This document shows positions 2,464 through 28,264 of a stretch of 29,660 nt of DNA, piece after piece. Position 1 is the stretch's first letter, and each line of letters starts with the position of its first letter. Where the stretch lies: positions 1-29,660 of IMG/VR virus record IMGVR_UViG_3300025296_000087; one strand, given 5' to 3'. Source of the DNA: a virus. Taxonomy: Duplodnaviria; Caudoviricetes. Made by a program: the position numbers and the translations under genes. The notes beneath the pieces were generated by a model. It worked only from the letters and a program-made list of their open reading frames with translations. It was not told the origin of the DNA and did no database searches.

Positions 2464-4898
2464 TAACTCACTCGCTTGTATACAGGTCTATATTCAATAG
2501 ACATATCATTTATTTGTATTCCTTCCGACGTACCCGTTGTAGTGGTCGGATTTGTAATTTTAAATCTTATGCTCTGACAAGAAATTGGACTGCTTGAAGT
2601 GGCTCGTAGCTTCTTCCACCCTGTTCCCGTACCACTGAAATTGCCTGTAAGCTGGTCTGAAAAGCTTGTACCGCCATCTGTAGCATAGTATATCGGTTGT
2701 GTCTGGTCATTATCGCTTTTATAAGTTAGTGTAATACCATATACCTTTTTTATTCTGCCGGGGTCACCAAAGTCTATATCTTTCGTAGTCACCTTGAAAT
2801 TCTCAGCGGTAACGTCACGAATATCATCTGACCATTCTTTTACACTGTAATTATCAGCAGTAGAATTCCACAAGTTTCCACCAGTGTAAGAACCCCAGTT
2901 CGCATTGGTATTGGTCCAAGTCAAATCTCCAGTAGTAAGATTCTGATAGGTGGTTGTCATATTACCGTTCCAATCGGAAACTATATTACTTCGGTTTACG
3001 TTCGTATCAAATGCTGCTTGTCCCGACACCCAAGAACCTGTACGAAAGTCGTATACGTATACATCTCCATCTGTGGCAAAAGCACTTTTCAAAATAACGA
3101 GATAATATTTCTTTGGATTATAACCTATTACAGTATTTGCATTTACATAATCTTGCCAAGTAGACTCCTTAATCTTATTTCTCAAAAGGTTTGTAACATT
3201 GTTTCCATCATACACAAAAAGACCAAATTTGTTTATCCAACATATACCAAACTCTGTCTTTACTGATGCGTGGGGATGCTCTATACCAGAAAAGTCTTTT
3301 ATCTCTTCCAAGAACCAGTTGGCTGGAGAAGGAGAAGCTATATTAAGAATATAAAGTTTCCTCGTCTTGAACGCCAATAATCTGTCTGAATATTCCTCAA
3401 GCTTAATAAACTCTTCAGAATCTCCCTTAACAACGTCAATAAAATAACTTCGGGGAAACGTATCAAACTTTCCTACTGGAGTGTACATAATCCTGTCACG
3501 CATTTGAATAGTCTGACCGTCTTCGTTCTCTGTCTTTATATTAGCTACAAAACATCTTCGATTGGCCACTACTGCGGTCTTGTATCCTTCTCCGTTACCT
3601 GATATGGTAATCTTACGTTCAGAAGGAAGAAAACCATTTAATATTTCATATGTTTCCAGACTTGGAGCTAGAGATACAACGCTATTTACATATACTTGGT
3701 CACCGCTATTTTTTACCCACGCTGAATAATCACCACTCAATCCTGCTCTAGCACCACGTGCCATATCAATATCCATAAGCAGTGCCCAAGGGTCATCTGT
3801 ACCATCTACTCTTACATAAACCCTTGCACCAGATATCCTTTCATCAAAGGGTGCGGTTGCATGCAGATTCATTGTCACTTTATAATTGTCCGCACTCGGT
3901 GTAAATGTATTGTTTGCCGTAGGAACATAAAGTAATGATTCCTGATGACCGTCATAAATAAACGAAGTGGCAATCTGATATGCCACAGCATCATAACCAC
4001 CGCCAGATACAGACGCTGCCGTTGTGCTGAATTGAAATCCAGCACCTGCAGATGGATAATTAGATGCGTGAATAACAAGCTCTGTAGGTGCAGCTAATGT
4101 GTTTACATTGGAGAACCAGTTGTCAAAACTTGTAGTAGAAGAAAGACTCAGACTACCAAAGTGCTGTCTCTTAACGTAGCCATACCAGTAAGGCTGAACC
4201 GAAGCACCAAATGTTCCATCAGCAATCCTCAAAGCTTCATCGGAAAAATAGTAAACAGCTTTAATAAGCTTTGTAATGGTGGGAGTGCCAGCTTCATTAG
4301 CTTCTGTATCAAGAATACCGCTATGGTCAAGTGTAATCGTACTTGCAGTCACATTCTTAATCCTAACACCATTAAGATTGTTGTCTGTATCATCAGTACA
4401 TCCCGATATCGCAATAATGTCGCCCTTGCGGAACCCATTGGATATCATTGTACTGTCATCATCTACAATAGTATCATTCGTACCAGAGCCAGAATTATCT
4501 GTAAATGCTAATTTATTTGCGGCAAATGTATCACCTGTAGCCGTACCTAAGTCAACTTGAGAGCTGTTAAATGCATCACCTTTAAGGTCGTATAGGTCTA
4601 TCGTACCCGTAAGACCATCGCACATTGCAAACCAGTTCTCGCCCGTGTCTAATGCGGAAGAACCTTGCTCATGGTCAGACTCGAATACAAATGCACCATA
4701 TCCGGGCGTAATGTGCCCTGCGGTACCGTCTGGTATATCCGTATGTGTTGAGTCTCCGCCTAATGGTTTGATTGACATTCTCTCATCTAAAATGATATTG
4801 TCTGTTTCAGAAAGCTGATTGTCAGCAATATCACGTGGATTGAAAGCGTCGTTAAGACCGCCAGAGAAATCTTTTAGACCATAGAATGCTTTAGGCAT
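2463..4898 (-). CDS. Tail nozzle / stabilization protein (P22 gp10 / T7 tubular B-like)
   Basis: 811 aa, N-terminal FSGGLN motif, beta-rich, C-terminal TKDIDFGDP...K.V motif typical of podovirus nozzle proteins. Confidence 0.7.
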   Translation of the reverse strand: MPKAFYGLKDFSGGLNDAFNPRDIADNQLSETDNIILDERMSIKPLGGDSTHTDIPDGTAGHITPGYGAFVFESDHEQGSSALDTGENWFAMCDGLTGTIDLYDLKGDAFNSSQVDLGTATGDTFAANKLAFTDNSGSGTNDTIVDDDSTMISNGFRKGDIIAISGCTDDTDNNLNGVRIKNVTASTITLDHSGILDTEANEAGTPTITKLIKAVYYFSDEALRIADGTFGASVQPYWYGYVKRQHFGSLSLSSTTSFDNWFSNVNTLAAPTELVIHASNYPSAGAGFQFSTTAASVSGGGYDAVAYQIATSFIYDGHQESLLYVPTANNTFTPSADNYKVTMNLHATAPFDERISGARVYVRVDGTDDPWALLMDIDMARGARAGLSGDYSAWVKNSGDQVYVNSVVSLAPSLETYEILNGFLPSERKITISGNGEGYKTAVVANRRCFVANIKTENEDGQTIQMRDRIMYTPVGKFDTFPRSYFIDVVKGDSEEFIKLEEYSDRLLAFKTRKLYILNIASPSPANWFLEEIKDFSGIEHPHASVKTEFGICWINKFGLFVYDGNNVTNLLRNKIKESTWQDYVNANTVIGYNPKKYYLVILKSAFATDGDVYVYDFRTGSWVSGQAAFDTNVNRSNIVSDWNGNMTTTYQNLTTGDLTWTNTNANWGSYTGGNLWNSTADNYSVKEWSDDIRDVTAENFKVTTKDIDFGDPGRIKKVYGITLTYKSDNDQTQPIYYATDGGTSFSDQLTGNFSGTGTGWKKLRATSSSPISCQSIRFKITNPTTTTGTSEGIQINDMSIEYRPVYKRVS

Positions 4899-5364
4899 GT
4901 AGTGCTCTCCTAACCCATCCGTAATAATACTTTTCTAACTCTGGTCGAGTAAGTGCTAACCTAGCATATTCCATAAGTCTGTAAGCCCTTAATCTCTCAG
5001 GCTCTAATTTTGCAGTCGCTTTAATTGTTTTTGGTCCCACTTTACCATCTACTTGAATTTTAGATTTATTCTTCCCATTACATGCACGTTGCAGTATCTT
5101 GGCGGATTTGGCTATCCCCTGATTAACCACCATATCAAAGTACTGCCCCTGCAACTCGTCAGGCAGTCTTTCTATTTTAGCTGGTAGCCAATAATCATCT
5201 TTATATATCTCCACGGCATCATCCATTGTAAGGTTCTTTATATCAACCTTTGGATATGCTTTTTTAGAAATACCGTACTTAGTTTCTCCGCCGGGGTCAT
5301 CAGGGTCGTTTACATATCCACCTTCACGACCAATTACCTTAGTTATTTCCTGATAAAAAGGCAT
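4891..5364 (-). CDS. Endolysin, glycoside hydrolase family 108 (lysozyme-like)
   Basis: Signature EGGYVNDPDDPGGETKYGI, plus FDMVVNQG and a VDGKVGPKT peptidoglycan-binding-like segment. Start revised to ATG 5364 (TAATG overlap with the upstream small ORF). Confidence 0.9.
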   Translation of the reverse strand: MPFYQEITKVIGREGGYVNDPDDPGGETKYGISKKAYPKVDIKNLTMDDAVEIYKDDYWLPAKIERLPDELQGQYFDMVVNQGIAKSAKILQRACNGKNKSKIQVDGKVGPKTIKATAKLEPERLRAYRLMEYARLALTRPELEKYYYGWVRRALHA

Positions 5365-5516
5365 TATTTTTTCTTCATTACTTTCACGCCCATCAAAACC
5401 TTTTTGGCAGCCGTCCATACGAGGTCATCCATTTTGCTAGGTGACATAGCCACCACCTTGTCTACCACAAGAATACCTATTGTTACGTATTCCCAGTTTT
5501 GCATTATCATGTCCAT
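5364..5516 (-). CDS. Small holin-like membrane protein (50 aa, not in ORF track)
   Basis: MDMIMQNWEYVTIGILVVDKVVAMSPSKMDDLVWTAAKKVLMGVKVMKKK. AGGAG RBS, hydrophobic segment with basic C-terminus, stop overlaps the endolysin start. Confidence 0.6.
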   Translation of the reverse strand: MDMIMQNWEYVTIGILVVDKVVAMSPSKMDDLVWTAAKKVLMGVKVMKKK

Positions 5517-5527
5517 TGTACCATCTC

Positions 5528-5791
5528 CTATTTAAATAATATCCAATCTGACGCGGTGAAATTGACATTTGGGTCATCACCTTCTTCTTTTTCAGGGTTG
5601 ACAATTTTGTCATTTCTATCATATCCTTCCCAACTACATCCCTCATAGAAGAACATCACAAAAGCAAAAACGAAACATATTCCAAGAGTTGTTGCAAAGG
5701 CGTTCCCGAACTTCTGATTCCAATTCTCCATATCCTTAATATCTTTGTTCGTTATGTCTGGCTCTCCCCTCCATGTCTTCACTGTCCTCAT
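5528..5791 (-). CDS. Membrane protein of the lysis cassette
   Basis: One TM segment (AFATTLGICFVFAFVMFF) followed by EGC and an acidic tail. Confidence 0.5.
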   Translation of the reverse strand: MRTVKTWRGEPDITNKDIKDMENWNQKFGNAFATTLGICFVFAFVMFFYEGCSWEGYDRNDKIVNPEKEEGDDPNVNFTASDWILFK

Positions 5792-5794
5792 TTC

Positions 5795-6076
5795 CTATCG
5801 TTTTCTTATTCCAATTTTTTCCAATAAAGATTTATTCTCTTGTATAAGCTCTTCGTTATGATGCTCAATCTCTTCTACATGCTCTTTTTCCATCTGGTCT
5901 AGCCTCATCTGTATCCCTACTATCTCATCGTGTATCTGCGTTATCCTAGTCCCGTGGTCATCAAGTGTGCTACTGACTTTAAAATAAGAAGCTGTAAGCA
6001 AAACAGAGGCTGTGATAATCTGTATGAGCCACTTGATATTGATGTTGATATGAAGGCTATCATTGAGACTAGTCAT
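5795..6076 (-). CDS. TM + coiled-coil membrane protein (lysis accessory / i-spanin-like architecture)
   Basis: N-terminal TM (WLIQIITASVLLTASYF) followed by a heptad-rich helix. Confidence 0.5.
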   Translation of the reverse strand: MTSLNDSLHININIKWLIQIITASVLLTASYFKVSSTLDDHGTRITQIHDEIVGIQMRLDQMEKEHVEEIEHHNEELIQENKSLLEKIGIRKR

Positions 6077-6294
6077 TCCCCAAACACTACACTGCTAACC
6101 AGAGCAAGAATAGACCCAAGAACAACACCAACAAGCGAACCCAGCCCCCTAAGCCACGATACTTGTTTCGTAAGTTCAGATTGTCGCACATCCAATCCTC
6201 TAAGATTGTCCTTAATCCATCTGACATCGGTTTTGACCTCAGCCAAATCAGTTTTTAAGCTCTCTCTCCAATCAGTCAGCTCTTGTCCGTTCAT
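6073..6294 (-). CDS. XhlA/holin-like coiled-coil protein with C-terminal TM
   Basis: DLAEVKTDVRWIK coiled coil, then GLGSLVGVVLGSILALVSSVVF. Confidence 0.55.
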   Translation of the reverse strand: MNGQELTDWRESLKTDLAEVKTDVRWIKDNLRGLDVRQSELTKQVSWLRGLGSLVGVVLGSILALVSSVVFGE

Positions 6295-6469
6295 TCTTCA
6301 TTTCTTCTTTAAATATCCACTTTGTTTTAGGTGGCGTTGACACGTATAAATCAATAGAGTTATGAGCACTCCCCAGAATACGTGTGGTGCTACCTGCCTT
6401 ACCGATACCAGTATCATGGCACTTACAACTGCAATCGCACACGCCATTACTGGGTCTTTCATTCTTCAT
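6272..6469 (-). CDS. Small Cys-rich hypothetical protein
   Basis: 65 aa with CDCSCKCH; overlaps both neighbours and fills the gap in the operon. Confidence 0.4.
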   Translation of the reverse strand: MKNERPSNGVCDCSCKCHDTGIGKAGSTTRILGSAHNSIDLYVSTPPKTKWIFKEEMKNERTRAD

Positions 6470-6947
6470 TTCTTAATCTATCCACTTCTTTCTCAAGAGT
6501 GTCAAGCCTAAATACATTAGCCTGTATATCACCCTGCAGTGCATACCACATACCTAGTAGGGATATAAGACCAGTCACAGCCGCCACCATAGTTTGGATT
6601 GACAACGTGAATTTTTTTTTAAGTATCTCCTCATCAGCCACAGGTACTATAGCGGGTAGTGGTGATACCTTAGATACAACTGGTTTTGGAGCAATCTTCT
6701 TCTGTAAAATTTGTTTCTGTAATAACCTATCTCGTTTTGCCTTCTCTCTCTCAGACTGTGCTTCCTTGGCTTCCTCTAACATAACCCCCGTTAAATCTTC
6801 TACTGTGACATACCCAGCCGCAACTAGAATCTCTCCTAGCTTTCTGTCATCACCATTAGACTGCTTATTAATAGCCTCATTAAGCTGTCGCTTAGTGATA
6901 ATGTCAGCATCCATTAATAGACTGCCGAGCTTAGTCTTATGACCCAT
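6459..6947 (-). CDS. MshEN-motif (c-di-GMP receptor-like) membrane protein
   Basis: From ATG 6947 (GAGG upstream): tandem 24-aa motifs KLGSLLMDADIITKRQLNEAINKQ and KLGEILVAAGYVTVEDLTGVMLEE matching MshEN RLGxxLLxxGLIxxxxLxxxLxxQ, then coiled coil, Pro linker, TM helix and coiled coil. Confidence 0.75.
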   Translation of the reverse strand: MGHKTKLGSLLMDADIITKRQLNEAINKQSNGDDRKLGEILVAAGYVTVEDLTGVMLEEAKEAQSEREKAKRDRLLQKQILQKKIAPKPVVSKVSPLPAIVPVADEEILKKKFTLSIQTMVAAVTGLISLLGMWYALQGDIQANVFRLDTLEKEVDRLRNEE

Positions 6948-7488
6948 CGGTAAACTTGACCTCAAATACATCATGGTCGTCAGTTCCTTTATACTCTATC
7001 TGAGTAATATCTGCTTCGCCACCGAAATGTTGAGCAATACCCTTTAGTGTACCTATAGCCAAAGGAGCTAATCCATCTCTCGGAGACTCATAATGAATTT
7101 CAAAATGATTGTCTCCAAGTTTATTTATTTCAAACGAGGGTGGAGCTAAGTTGGGTAACATCTCTGCAATCCTAACGTGCATCTCATCCAATCCCTCAAC
7201 GAAAGTTTCAAAATCATGACCAAAGGCATTGAAGTATTCTCCATATCCTTTAGGTGCAACATCAGTTGCCCAGTAAACACCAAACATCTCTAGCACATCT
7301 GATGCCGGCACCCCCAATATCTCTGACGTAGCCCCAACAAGTGAATACGTAACAGAATCATCATATCCTTCCATACCATCAAACACATCATCTCCTACTC
7401 CAGAAGATTCAAGTACTTGTTCCCACACCTCTTCACCAGCCTCTCTTGTGACTAAGGTTCGGATAGCTTCGTTAATCATTCCGTACAT
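6937..7488 (-). CDS. H-NOX (HNOB) heme NO-binding sensor protein, 183 aa
   Basis: Starts MYGMIN at ATG 7488 (TAATG overlap). Has YDDSVTY, FGVYW, proximal His in LDEMH (H104), LAPPSF proline and YxSxR (Y133-S135-R137); co-linear with cyanobacterial and sGC-beta H-NOX. Confidence 0.93.
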   Translation of the reverse strand: MYGMINEAIRTLVTREAGEEVWEQVLESSGVGDDVFDGMEGYDDSVTYSLVGATSEILGVPASDVLEMFGVYWATDVAPKGYGEYFNAFGHDFETFVEGLDEMHVRIAEMLPNLAPPSFEINKLGDNHFEIHYESPRDGLAPLAIGTLKGIAQHFGGEADITQIEYKGTDDHDVFEVKFTDGS

Positions 7489-7961
7489 TACTTGTATTCC
7501 AATTCCATTGTGTATGATACTACAACATCTGTGGGCCAATCATCTGTTGCCCATTTCTGTTTAGAGAAAAATTCTCCGTAACCATGACTAAATGGATAAG
7601 CCCAATCTCTTGCATTGTCGGGCCAAGGTACAAAATGTGTTTTATCCATTACGTTACCCAAATTTCTTTCATTGTTCCACTCAATGATGTAACCAGTAAG
7701 AAAAACAGAATCAACAGGAGTTGAATCCAGTTTCGTGACAGCATACCAGTAACCGAGTTCCACACTGTCTACTCCGAATGGATAGAGCTGGGCTTCTGAT
7801 GTAATTCCAAAAGATGCTTCGCTTTCAACATATGAAGTATCATGGACTTGAACATAGAGCGTATCCCTTATCTCATAGATTTCGGGAACATATACTATCT
7901 CTGGGTCTAATTGGCATCCGAGAAGTATGAGTGGAAGAATCCATTTAAGTGCCTTTGCCAA
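7488..7961 (-). CDS. Predicted lipoprotein
   Basis: Basic N-terminus, hydrophobic stretch and lipobox LLGC (Cys16); TTG start. Confidence 0.6.
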   Translation of the reverse strand: MAKALKWILPLILLGCQLDPEIVYVPEIYEIRDTLYVQVHDTSYVESEASFGITSEAQLYPFGVDSVELGYWYAVTKLDSTPVDSVFLTGYIIEWNNERNLGNVMDKTHFVPWPDNARDWAYPFSHGYGEFFSKQKWATDDWPTDVVVSYTMELEYK

Positions 7962-26926: not shown

Positions 26927-27247
26927 ATGAATCCAGTAGAAAAAAGAACGTCAAGAGCGTTTTCTGAAAACGTACCTGTCGGGAAGTTTGGAGTAGACAG
27001 CGGTCAAATTATTATTGTTGACCCTTGCTACCTGAATGAATGGCTGCACAATAGAATGGATGAAGAAAGTGCAGAAGAACTAAGTTGGAGTAATGTTTGC
27101 AGAACTACATTAGATGAAGAATTCCAAATTGGAGATTCGTGTGCAGTAGTATCTACTACAGGACACGGAGATGGACTTTATCCTGTATATGCAGACTTCG
27201 ATGAAGCAGGAGCTGTGAAAGAGTTAAGAATAAGGTTCTTACGTTGA
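26927..27247 (+). CDS. DUF4241-like protein
   Basis: GVDSGQIIIVDPCY and TGHGDGLYPVY motifs. Confidence 0.6.
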   Translation: MNPVEKRTSRAFSENVPVGKFGVDSGQIIIVDPCYLNEWLHNRMDEESAEELSWSNVCRTTLDEEFQIGDSCAVVSTTGHGDGLYPVYADFDEAGAVKELRIRFLR

Positions 27248-27520: not shown

Positions 27521-28264
27521 ATGGAGGTATCTAAAATGAATCATCCGTATTTAGGCAGGACTGAGTTGTTTACATATCCTGACAGTAGCCACAAAGCAGA
27601 AAAGGCTCTTCCTATGGAATATGCAAACTTTATAATGTATATGAAGCCATATAAGACAGAAATAGATGGTAAAGTAAGAAATGTTTGCAGTATGGCTAAA
27701 ACCTGTATAAAACCCTGTCTTGTAACAGCCGGCAGGGGTGCATTCGGTGCTGTAAAACAAGCAAGAAGGAAACGTACAAGATTTTATTGGCAGGACAGAA
27801 CTGGATTCCTGGAATGTCTTGAACAATCAGTAGATAGAGCAGTAGGATGGGCAGAAAGAAGAAGTCTTACTCCTGTATTTAGATTAAATGGTACTTCTGA
27901 CCTTCCATTTCATAGAATGAATGTGATGCAGAACTTTTCCGATGTACAATTTTATGATTATACCAAAGTTTCTAGAAGATTAACGCAGAAATTGCCAGAC
28001 AACTATCATCTTACTTTCAGCTATGATGGAACTAATATGGAATCCTGTATGGTGGCGTTACTGAATGGAATCAATGTTGCAGCCGTATTCAAGAATGAAT
28101 TTCCTGCACATCATACTATAGGCACAGAAACTGAAGTAGGAATATTTAAGGTAATAGATGGAGATAAGCACGATTTAAGATTTCTGGATGAATCTCCTGC
28201 AATAGTAGCACTTTCACCGAAAGGTAAAGCAAGAAAGGATGATTCAGTATTTATCATTAACTAA
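27521..28264 (+). CDS. GP88-like protein (radical-SAM-like Cys cluster); likely start ATG 27536
   Basis: CSMAKTCIKPCL..AGRG, RLNGTSD, FYDYTK, NYHLTFS, DGDKHDLRFLD motifs. Confidence 0.6.
   Translation: MEVSKMNHPYLGRTELFTYPDSSHKAEKALPMEYANFIMYMKPYKTEIDGKVRNVCSMAKTCIKPCLVTAGRGAFGAVKQARRKRTRFYWQDRTGFLECLEQSVDRAVGWAERRSLTPVFRLNGTSDLPFHRMNVMQNFSDVQFYDYTKVSRRLTQKLPDNYHLTFSYDGTNMESCMVALLNGINVAAVFKNEFPAHHTIGTETEVGIFKVIDGDKHDLRFLDESPAIVALSPKGKARKDDSVFIIN

Follow-up and report, generated by a model that had tools for sequence, protein, structure and literature searches.

The virus record IMGVR_UViG_3300025296_000087 (Duplodnaviria; Caudoviricetes), all 29,660 nucleotides of which make up the window analyzed here, raises the question of what a phage does with a gene for an H-NOX protein followed directly by one for a membrane protein with an MshEN head (MshEN-TM), both lying upstream of an endolysin gene. 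An initial annotation had read the gene run at 4891-7961 as a single module sensing nitric oxide (NO) and cyclic di-guanosine monophosphate (c-di-GMP) and wired into the lysis cassette. Our answer is narrower. The conserved unit is the H-NOX/MshEN-TM pair and not the whole run, and the pair is an optional insert that this lysis region can do without. Established are the 2 genes side by side with their motifs intact, how widely they have spread, that they are dispensable, and that a helix in MshEN-TM tracks H-NOX; we are highly confident that the 2 genes form a functional pair, and H-NOX probably docks directly on MshEN-TM in the predicted complex.

The first core gene, at 6937..7488 on the minus strand, encodes a stand-alone H-NOX of 183 amino acids (aa), and a profile check bears out that identity with E = 3.8 × 10−46 against PF07700 (157.4 bits against a cut-off of 25.5, covering positions 1-162 of 163). 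The protein scores E = 2.4 × 10−49 against the Nostoc Alr2278 H-NOX, with which it can be aligned, and E = 4 × 10−25 against 6JT0, a soluble guanylate cyclase. Its AlphaFold model has a predicted local distance difference test (pLDDT) score of 84.7. The H-NOX motif set is intact, comprising His104, Pro117, Tyr133-x-Ser135-x-Arg137, and the hinge glycines Gly70 and Gly146. Across a clade of 71 sequences, being the window and the top 70 of 91 matches, H104, Y133, S135, R137, G70, and G146 are invariant and P117 is found in 70. Judged by these residues, the protein very probably binds haem and NO. A distal-pocket Tyr on alphaG marks the O2-binding H-NOX proteins; none of the 42 aligned sequences has Tyr at residues 138-150 (L143 is present in 71/71), and the O2-sensor class is rejected on that criterion. 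By such criteria, the sequence places the protein with the NO-selective sensors. The Zn/Cys redox class, which has 3 conserved Cys (PMC8738867), is also rejected, there being no Cys in any of the 42. Members of the clade are 70% or more identical to one another (70-97%) and at most about 46% identical to other full-length matches. Fused H-NOX forms of greater length were looked for without success, which counts as weak evidence, and the model had no fold match at E ≤ 0.001 among predicted viral structures.

MshEN-TM (162 aa; 6459..6947, minus strand), the second core gene, has an 11-base overlap with the H-NOX stop. Its layout is a cytoplasmic MshEN head, a docking helix, a linker, one membrane helix with a hydropathy peak at 113-131, and a short C-terminal coiled coil. 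The model has helices at 3-13, 19-30, 37-44, 49-85, and 106-161, and in the monomer the final helix of the MshEN head and the docking helix form one continuous stretch (49-85). The identity proposed for the head also stands, for it scores 47.9 bits against NCBIfam NF053729 (cut-off 38), a profile that matches 42/42 aligned MshEN-TM members at E ≤ 0.001; there is no Pfam match. Against PilB and MshE sequences in the PDB, the head gives E = 1.6 × 10−5 to 3.6 × 10−4. The top fold match is the MshE-c-di-GMP structure 5HTL, with a root-mean-square deviation (rmsd) of 1.2 Å over 55 columns and E = 0.03, and a second fold search again puts 5HTL on top (Z = 7.9, rmsd 2.4, 59 aligned). The membrane helix, at 6543..6611 on the minus strand, belongs to a phage single-pass family that also exists without the MshEN head, in forms of about 90-117 aa followed by a thioredoxin-fold gene. 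This segment is remotely like the family of a 93-aa neighbor (hhalign probability 93.6% over 41 columns), and atlas searches with the membrane part returned unnamed viral clusters only.

The main point of interest in the head is whether it still binds c-di-GMP. The tandem (R/K/L)LGxx..LxxxLxxQ motif and the four-helix head that characterize MshEN receptors are present, the motif occupying residues 6-59 (K6-L-G...Q29, a 6-residue spacer, then K36-L-G...E59; 6771..6932, minus strand). Compared with the motif in PMC5013675 and PMC11731258, Lys takes the place of both Arg, Gln29 is intact, and Glu59 replaces the second Gln, a position at which 32 of 43 H-NOX-linked relatives do have Gln. Among contact residues L7, G8, L22, Q29, L37, G38, and L52 are kept, and D15, I26, M56, and E59 differ. 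In PilF, Lys at motif position 1 binds c-di-GMP at 6 nM and a change of the second Gln to Glu gives 460 nM (PMC11731258). Because of these PilF values, binding by the window copy is plausible but probably weakened, and the sequence tips us slightly toward binding. In 2 other loci (L081:2105-2824 and L093:6552-7250), the spacer that separates the motifs of the MshEN head is 11 residues long instead of 6.

Both genes are intact and under purifying selection. Against contig L043, nonsynonymous (dN) and synonymous (dS) divergence are 0.014 and 0.385 for H-NOX, and 0.041 and 0.284 for MshEN-TM. Contig L021 covers neither H-NOX nor the lipoprotein gene, and values against it for these 2 genes are left out. 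How strictly they travel together can be read from 95 H-NOX loci, 14 of them viral, 1 from species genomes, and the rest the best 80 of at least 142 confirmed in a metagenome scan; this set leans to close relatives and contains duplicates, with 55 non-redundant loci at 97% identity. Six loci break off no more than 30 bases from the match and are left out, and in 89/89 loci with downstream sequence MshEN-TM directly follows H-NOX. The co-occurrence expected by the initial annotation thus holds for this pair, and fails for the GH108 endolysin, which is not a constant neighbor. The pair is found on podovirus-like (L040, L043), tape-measure-bearing (L024, L006), and myovirus-like contigs (with a sheath in L010), that is, in podo-, sipho-, and myovirus-like settings. 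Neither gene had a match among 50,697 GenBank phage records, and there is no PHROG for either.

Dispensability is seen in the close relatives. Searching by the endolysin gave 32 loci, of which 31 were mapped and 9 span from a 66-aa gene or the lipoprotein gene through the endolysin. The pair is present in 3 of these (L204, L207, and L210, one phage type), and in the other 6 (L203, L217, L220, L221, L222, and L223, with L221 and L222 near copies) both genes are absent and the endolysin block is kept. The run as one module does not survive this comparison. A contig from sequencing run X2 links 6463 with 7488, which are the boundaries of the pair, at a depth of 4.6 and with 33 letters on its short side (intervening letters not known, likeness 88), and is a weak echo of the pair-less form.

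An optional insert in a region that is mosaic among close relatives might be 2 host genes captured by chance and hitch-hiking in an insertion-prone place, or an assembly chimera. We regard this as extremely improbable in view of the strong purifying selection, the strict adjacency, and the colinear independent contigs, and a neutral passenger is likewise rejected. As annotated, the run at 4891-7961 is contiguous on the minus strand, its genes abutting or overlapping with junction gaps of −11 to +11 bases; for genes throughout the late block the gaps are −17 to +11. Contig L039 is 99.8% identical to the window over 12,549 bases and L001 is 99.8% identical over 7,623 bases, each colinear and gap-free; because of this agreement over 12.5 kb and 7.6 kb, the window is not chimeric. 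Contig L040 is identical to the window and is probably its own contig. Of the 20 listed sequencing runs, 14 each contain at least half of the sampled words; these carry the label marine metagenome and are maybe one campaign. No RNA run is among those listed as containing the window, and run X20, which is RNA only by guess and has a small share, gave 2 contigs of relatives that say nothing of expression. A scan of 185,579 species genomes with clade-specific patterns found one clade member and one distant planctomycete H-NOX, and the sole clade member is L024, a phage-like contig with a tape-measure gene in an archaeal bin. That contig (L024:1-12540) encodes the tape measure, the H-NOX pair, and 2 DUF2589 genes, and is probably mis-binned.

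What connects the 2 proteins is indicated by a natural series. A search with L129, an MshEN-TM without H-NOX, found 67 loci in 3 grades: the membrane part only, head plus membrane part, and head plus helix plus membrane part behind an H-NOX. The helix, residues 68-84 (KRDxxLxxxI; 6696..6746, minus strand), is found only in H-NOX-linked partners and is the predicted H-NOX docking site. Its pattern occurs in 44/44 complete H-NOX-linked partners versus 0/25 H-NOX-less ones, a count that excludes truncated rows and also L185, where the helix is present with 41 bases upstream, and K71, R72, D73, L76, I80, and K84 are kept in 42/42. On a tree built with the helix left out (68 rows, 109 columns, one X-containing row dropped), 3 changes of the label are required, with 2 or more of them on starred branches. 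L130, nested in an H-NOX-bearing clade, is without both the H-NOX gene and the helix. The MshEN-headed membrane proteins without H-NOX (L129:4983-5582, L130-L163, and L180) are in large phage contigs, where their genes sit between one for an exported protein or lipoprotein of 420-430 aa and a thioredoxin-fold gene with no CxxC in the copies read. This H-NOX-less family is a candidate phage c-di-GMP receptor in its own right.

A complex of MshEN-TM with H-NOX, the modeling of which had been proposed with the initial annotation, was predicted from H-NOX, partner residues 1-90, and haem. It scores 0.71 (runs 0.61-0.80), while the best of 3 controls scores 0.09; the score mark is reached by 116/157 solved versus 2/215 mismatched pairs, a calibration that is only rough here, since own alignments were used and haem was included. 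Contact agreement is 100% and partner pLDDT is at least 82. The model interface joins H-NOX 38-39, 81-89, and 102-111 (around His104) to partner residues 68-84, and all confident partner contacts lie within that helix, which had been picked out earlier by co-occurrence. By mean top-residue share, the interface is conserved at 0.93 versus 0.88 in H-NOX and at 0.85 versus 0.75 in the MshEN head. With a +1 residue offset, the docking face on H-NOX is the one that contacts the coiled coil in guanylate cyclase, where in the human enzyme G82, I86, V89, H107, and T110 make the contact and alphaF shifts on NO binding (bioRxiv 10.1101/731679; PMC8196705). Since the predicted face is the guanylate cyclase signaling face, the mechanism is plausible, yet the score may partly be memory of those structures.

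The alternative closest to the initial annotation is that H-NOX from the phage controls a histidine kinase or cyclase of the host, that c-di-GMP changes as a result, and that MshEN-TM reads c-di-GMP and gates a holin. Known stand-alone H-NOX proteins do act through such enzymes (PMC8738867), and the phage brings none of its own. The observation that sensor and c-di-GMP-receptor motif are carried without an enzyme was correct: no GGDEF, EAL, HATPase, kinase, cyclase, or phosphodiesterase is found among the 49 open reading frames (ORFs) of the window, in 5 partial phage records (22-71% complete), or near the pair among 150 of 151 neighbor-cluster representatives of at least 45 aa. In canonical H-NOX operons the adjacent gene would be a histidine kinase, a GGDEF/EAL enzyme, or a fused chemoreceptor, and here it is MshEN-TM. 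The nearness of an endolysin (within 3.5 kb) in 6/17 small-phage loci would also suit a host-enzyme circuit. Such a circuit leaves unexplained why the helix is gained and lost with H-NOX and why the model docks there; moreover, one H-NOX clade, 70-97% identical, occurs in very different phages, and the lysis region here can do without the pair. We consider a bridge through host enzymes improbable. Because the helix co-occurs with H-NOX and the complex model docks on it, direct docking is preferred, and in that model it is likely the membrane protein of the phage itself, and not host enzymes, that the sensor signals to.

Docking would also suit an H-NOX that is a membrane-tethered scavenger of NO or haem against nitrosative stress, with MshEN-TM a mere anchor, and the haem-binding residues are all invariant. 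However, in this family the MshEN head is older than H-NOX and has stayed conserved (25 forms without H-NOX, with the Q32 equivalent in 25/25), the hinge glycines and signaling face are kept, and a one-to-one binder would be a poor sink. Scavenging is accordingly rated more improbable still than the host-enzyme circuit.

We next come to the output of the docked pair, for which the surrounding genes are relevant. The GH108 endolysin was correctly recognized (157 aa; 4891..5364, minus strand; PF05838 E = 5.1 × 10−26, phrog_315 E = 1.4 × 10−46) and has a peptidoglycan-binding domain (PF09374, PG_binding_3, E = 5.2 × 10−11). All of the following are also on the minus strand. Start-coupled to the endolysin with a 1-base overlap is a 50-aa peptide (5364..5516; dN 0.186, dS 1.94 against L043). 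It was annotated as holin-like, which its position beside the endolysin allows and its sequence does not bear out, there being no family match and no 19-residue window of hydropathy at or above 1.6; it is a holin by position only. Then come an 87-aa membrane protein with no family match (5528..5791; hydropathy peak 31-49), a 93-aa single-pass coiled-coil protein with a weak Rz-like spanin match (5795..6076; phrog_739 E = 0.024, L005 homologue E = 2.6 × 10−4), and a 73-aa membrane protein with a weak XhlA-like ("hemolysin") match, a possible holin (6073..6294; phrog_1193 E = 0.0011; hydropathy peak 54-72). Of the elements of a lysis cassette the endolysin is present, and holin and spanin are represented by these weak matches only.

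Next to the pair, a 54-aa hydrophobic ORF (6298..6462, hydropathy peak 3-21) is a likelier product than the overlapping Cys-rich frame at 6272-6469 that had been annotated as a peptide. Over 8 sequences the ratio of nonsynonymous to synonymous polymorphism (pN/pS) is 0.47 for the hydrophobic frame versus 0.86 for the Cys-rich one, and the hydrophobic frame has a third-position excess of 23/23/40. The Cys-rich frame is open with an ATG in 8/8, and the hydrophobic frame lacks an ATG at that place in L217, L220, L221, and L223. The Cys-rich frame is probably a shadow of the 54-aa ORF; with both frames open in 8 relatives, a true overlapping gene is possible. Either frame is also found where the pair is absent; neither belongs to the pair, and the Cys-rich peptide is rejected as a sensor component. 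In close relatives, 5 to 8 small membrane genes in shuffled order lie between lipoprotein and endolysin (L203:1885-2369, L220:1058-2076, L221:2291-3849, L223:2372-3192).

The claim that the pair is wired into the lysis cassette did not hold, as it is missing in 6/9 spanning relatives and is not a constant member; its link to lysis is positional only. Proximity was searched with 3 lysis families, within 3.5 kb. An endolysin is in reach in 6 of the 17 small-phage loci, which have H-NOX identity of at least 85%, and in 4 of the 6 with 3 kb downstream. A 3-TM holin is near 2/38 myovirus-like H-NOX loci and 8/25 H-NOX-less MshEN-TM loci, and 8/15 close loci with only the membrane part have an endolysin within 3.5 kb. 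Searches of the 5 partial large-phage records for the endolysins of phrog_465 and phrog_315 gave no match; the second of these searches gave no signal in any control, and neither places the lysis genes of those records. Lysis regions commonly gather accessory membrane genes. A lysis role of the pair is possible, since its membrane-protein family is often near lysis genes, and lysis or release as the output, in place of another envelope process, is a tentative reading.

That other process could involve the type IV pilus or the display of receptors (in superinfection exclusion or attachment), controlled by a complex that mimics or competes with the MshEN head of PilB or MshE, or that sequesters c-di-GMP at the membrane in an NO-controlled way. 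Pilus ATPases are the closest solved relatives of the head, pilin-like genes come after the cassette in 3/55 loci (L069, L086, and L097), and the typical myovirus-like neighbors are exported, with a thioredoxin-fold gene following in 17/17 such loci that have 3 kb downstream. The pilin-like genes number 1-4, carry the N-methylation motif, and lie soon after the cassette on myovirus-like contigs (L097:2644-4678, L069:4132-4984, L086:4849-5393). On the other side, pilins are missing from most loci and from the window, the gene here sits among late structural and lysis genes, and for a c-di-GMP sink the conserved membrane and outer segment would be needless. Such an output is unlikely in our judgment, and is rated somewhat lower than lysis or release.

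The explanation we prefer is that the 2 genes are an optional, mobile phage cassette whose products would form one inner-membrane complex, through which the virus would likely read chemical signals of its host at the envelope, and as a whole it has in our view an even chance of being right. H-NOX would take host haem, bind NO, and dock through its alphaE/alphaF face on helix 68-84 of MshEN-TM. In guanylate cyclase, that face moves when NO breaks the iron-His bond. Docking would change the setting of a membrane protein for which c-di-GMP is a likely further ligand; since the docking helix directly continues the final helix of the MshEN head, a shift driven by NO would affect either c-di-GMP binding or how the membrane helix packs. 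Two signals, NO and c-di-GMP, would thus be joined without an enzyme, and the complex would act on a late envelope step, most probably progeny release. The fullest version, in which an NO-binding sensor docked as in guanylate cyclase and a c-di-GMP-binding membrane protein make an enzyme-free coincidence detector that gates lysis, arose stepwise with the membrane protein first, the MshEN head second, and helix and H-NOX last, moves between unrelated marine phages, and times release to the respiratory and lifestyle state of the host, is speculative and on balance unlikely.

Several points weigh against this explanation. The window head departs from consensus at G18 (D15), L58 (M56), and Q61 (E59) and has the 6-residue spacer, and at the second Arg position 7 of 43 H-NOX-linked partners carry Glu. 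The helix pattern was derived from the H-NOX-linked set and relaxed once, the first version catching 37/44. A tree of only 109 columns for 68 rows means that the independent events are few, though concordant, and likeness to guanylate cyclase structures may inflate the complex score. An endolysin lies within 3.5 kb of 0/38 myovirus-like H-NOX loci (17 with at least 3 kb downstream), and L024 and L052 have neither endolysin nor holin within that distance. The window is without the thioredoxin-fold and 430-aa neighbors typical of myovirus-like loci, and the output partner is not constant.

As for the rest of the window, terminase, P22-type portal, and SU10-type capsid genes found by family profile searches make it podovirus-like, and the run is in a minus-strand late block flanked by 2 tail-region genes. 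The run begins with a predicted lipoprotein of 157 aa (7488..7961, minus strand, TTG start), in which the annotated LLGC lipobox is present. It is a backbone gene, present in relatives without H-NOX (L203, L217, L220-L222), and has no family match in Pfam, PHROG, NCBIfam, or atlas searches. Likely starts are ATG 7488 for H-NOX, which overlaps the lipoprotein stop, ATG 6947 for MshEN-TM, and ATG 5364 for GH108. Promoter (23 versus 21.1 in shuffles) and terminator (3 versus 4.2) counts show no excess, and Rfam has no match in the window. A low-GC plus-strand arm has a GP88-family gene at 27521-28264 and a DUF4241-like gene at 26927-27247. Host-like extras near the cassette elsewhere are a trypsin-dockerin protein (L112:5978-7132), a mechanosensitive-channel beta domain protein (L112:4617-5036), and a family-25 glycosyltransferase (L113:3460-4326).

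The initial annotation knew of no comparable phage system, and the listings from full-text searches on phage and virome H-NOX, HNOB, MshEN, phage c-di-GMP binders, and NO and lysis timing showed no phage-encoded H-NOX or MshEN; most subscription papers and supplements, where virome tables could list HNOB, were outside their scope. The main text of a jumbo-phage survey has no occurrence of H-NOX, HNOB, or MshEN (PMC7824862), and the H-NOX neighbors listed in the available part of PMC8738867 are kinases, cyclases, FIST, and Nudix, with MshEN not among them. The pair is apparently a previously undescribed wiring of 2 known sensor domains that is real, selected, and phage-borne. If the explanation is true, a virus would carry a gas sensor and H-NOX would have a new class of partner, one that is a receptor-type membrane protein and not an enzyme; it would also suggest that marine phages read NO and c-di-GMP during infection. 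As of a 2022 review there was no high-resolution structure of an H-NOX with a partner (PMC8738867), and the small soluble pair of 183 + 90 residues would be a tractable route to one and a minimal model for how alphaF movement reaches a helix. Ready-made controls are provided by the naturally occurring forms that have or lack H-NOX and the helix.

Among known systems, T4 lysis inhibition would be a working analogy, in which a signal sets the timing through a protein of the inner membrane that has partners on either side. There the holin T works with the RI and RIII antiholins and the signal is superinfection, which is neither a gas nor a second messenger, and no sequence likeness to the phage pair was found. 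The MshEN receptors (Vibrio MshE 5HTL, Thermus PilF GSPII-B, PilB, and NfrB) share the tandem 24-residue motif and the four-helix head. Unlike them, the phage protein has no MshEN_C subdomain, ATPase, or glycosyltransferase, is fused to a single-pass phage membrane family, and in the window copy has a second motif ending in Glu. Soluble guanylate cyclase beta-1 is alike in its H-NOX sequence, and the helix of the phage pair is predicted to dock on alphaE/alphaF at the face that contacts the coiled coil there. It differs in that the phage unit is 2 separate proteins with no PAS or cyclase domain, and the phage docking helix is flanked by a nucleotide-binding head and a membrane helix. There is likeness in gene arrangement to stand-alone bacterial H-NOX proteins with an adjacent cognate partner (nearest solved is Nostoc Alr2278, PDB 2O09 and 4IAE), with which the phage protein shares the fold, the proximal His, YxSxR, the Pro, the glycine hinge, and a gene placed directly before that of the partner (PMC8738867, PMC8196705). 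In contrast to the bacterial pairings with a histidine kinase or with a diguanylate cyclase-phosphodiesterase, the partner here is a non-enzyme membrane protein of the c-di-GMP-receptor type, and the unit is carried by phages.

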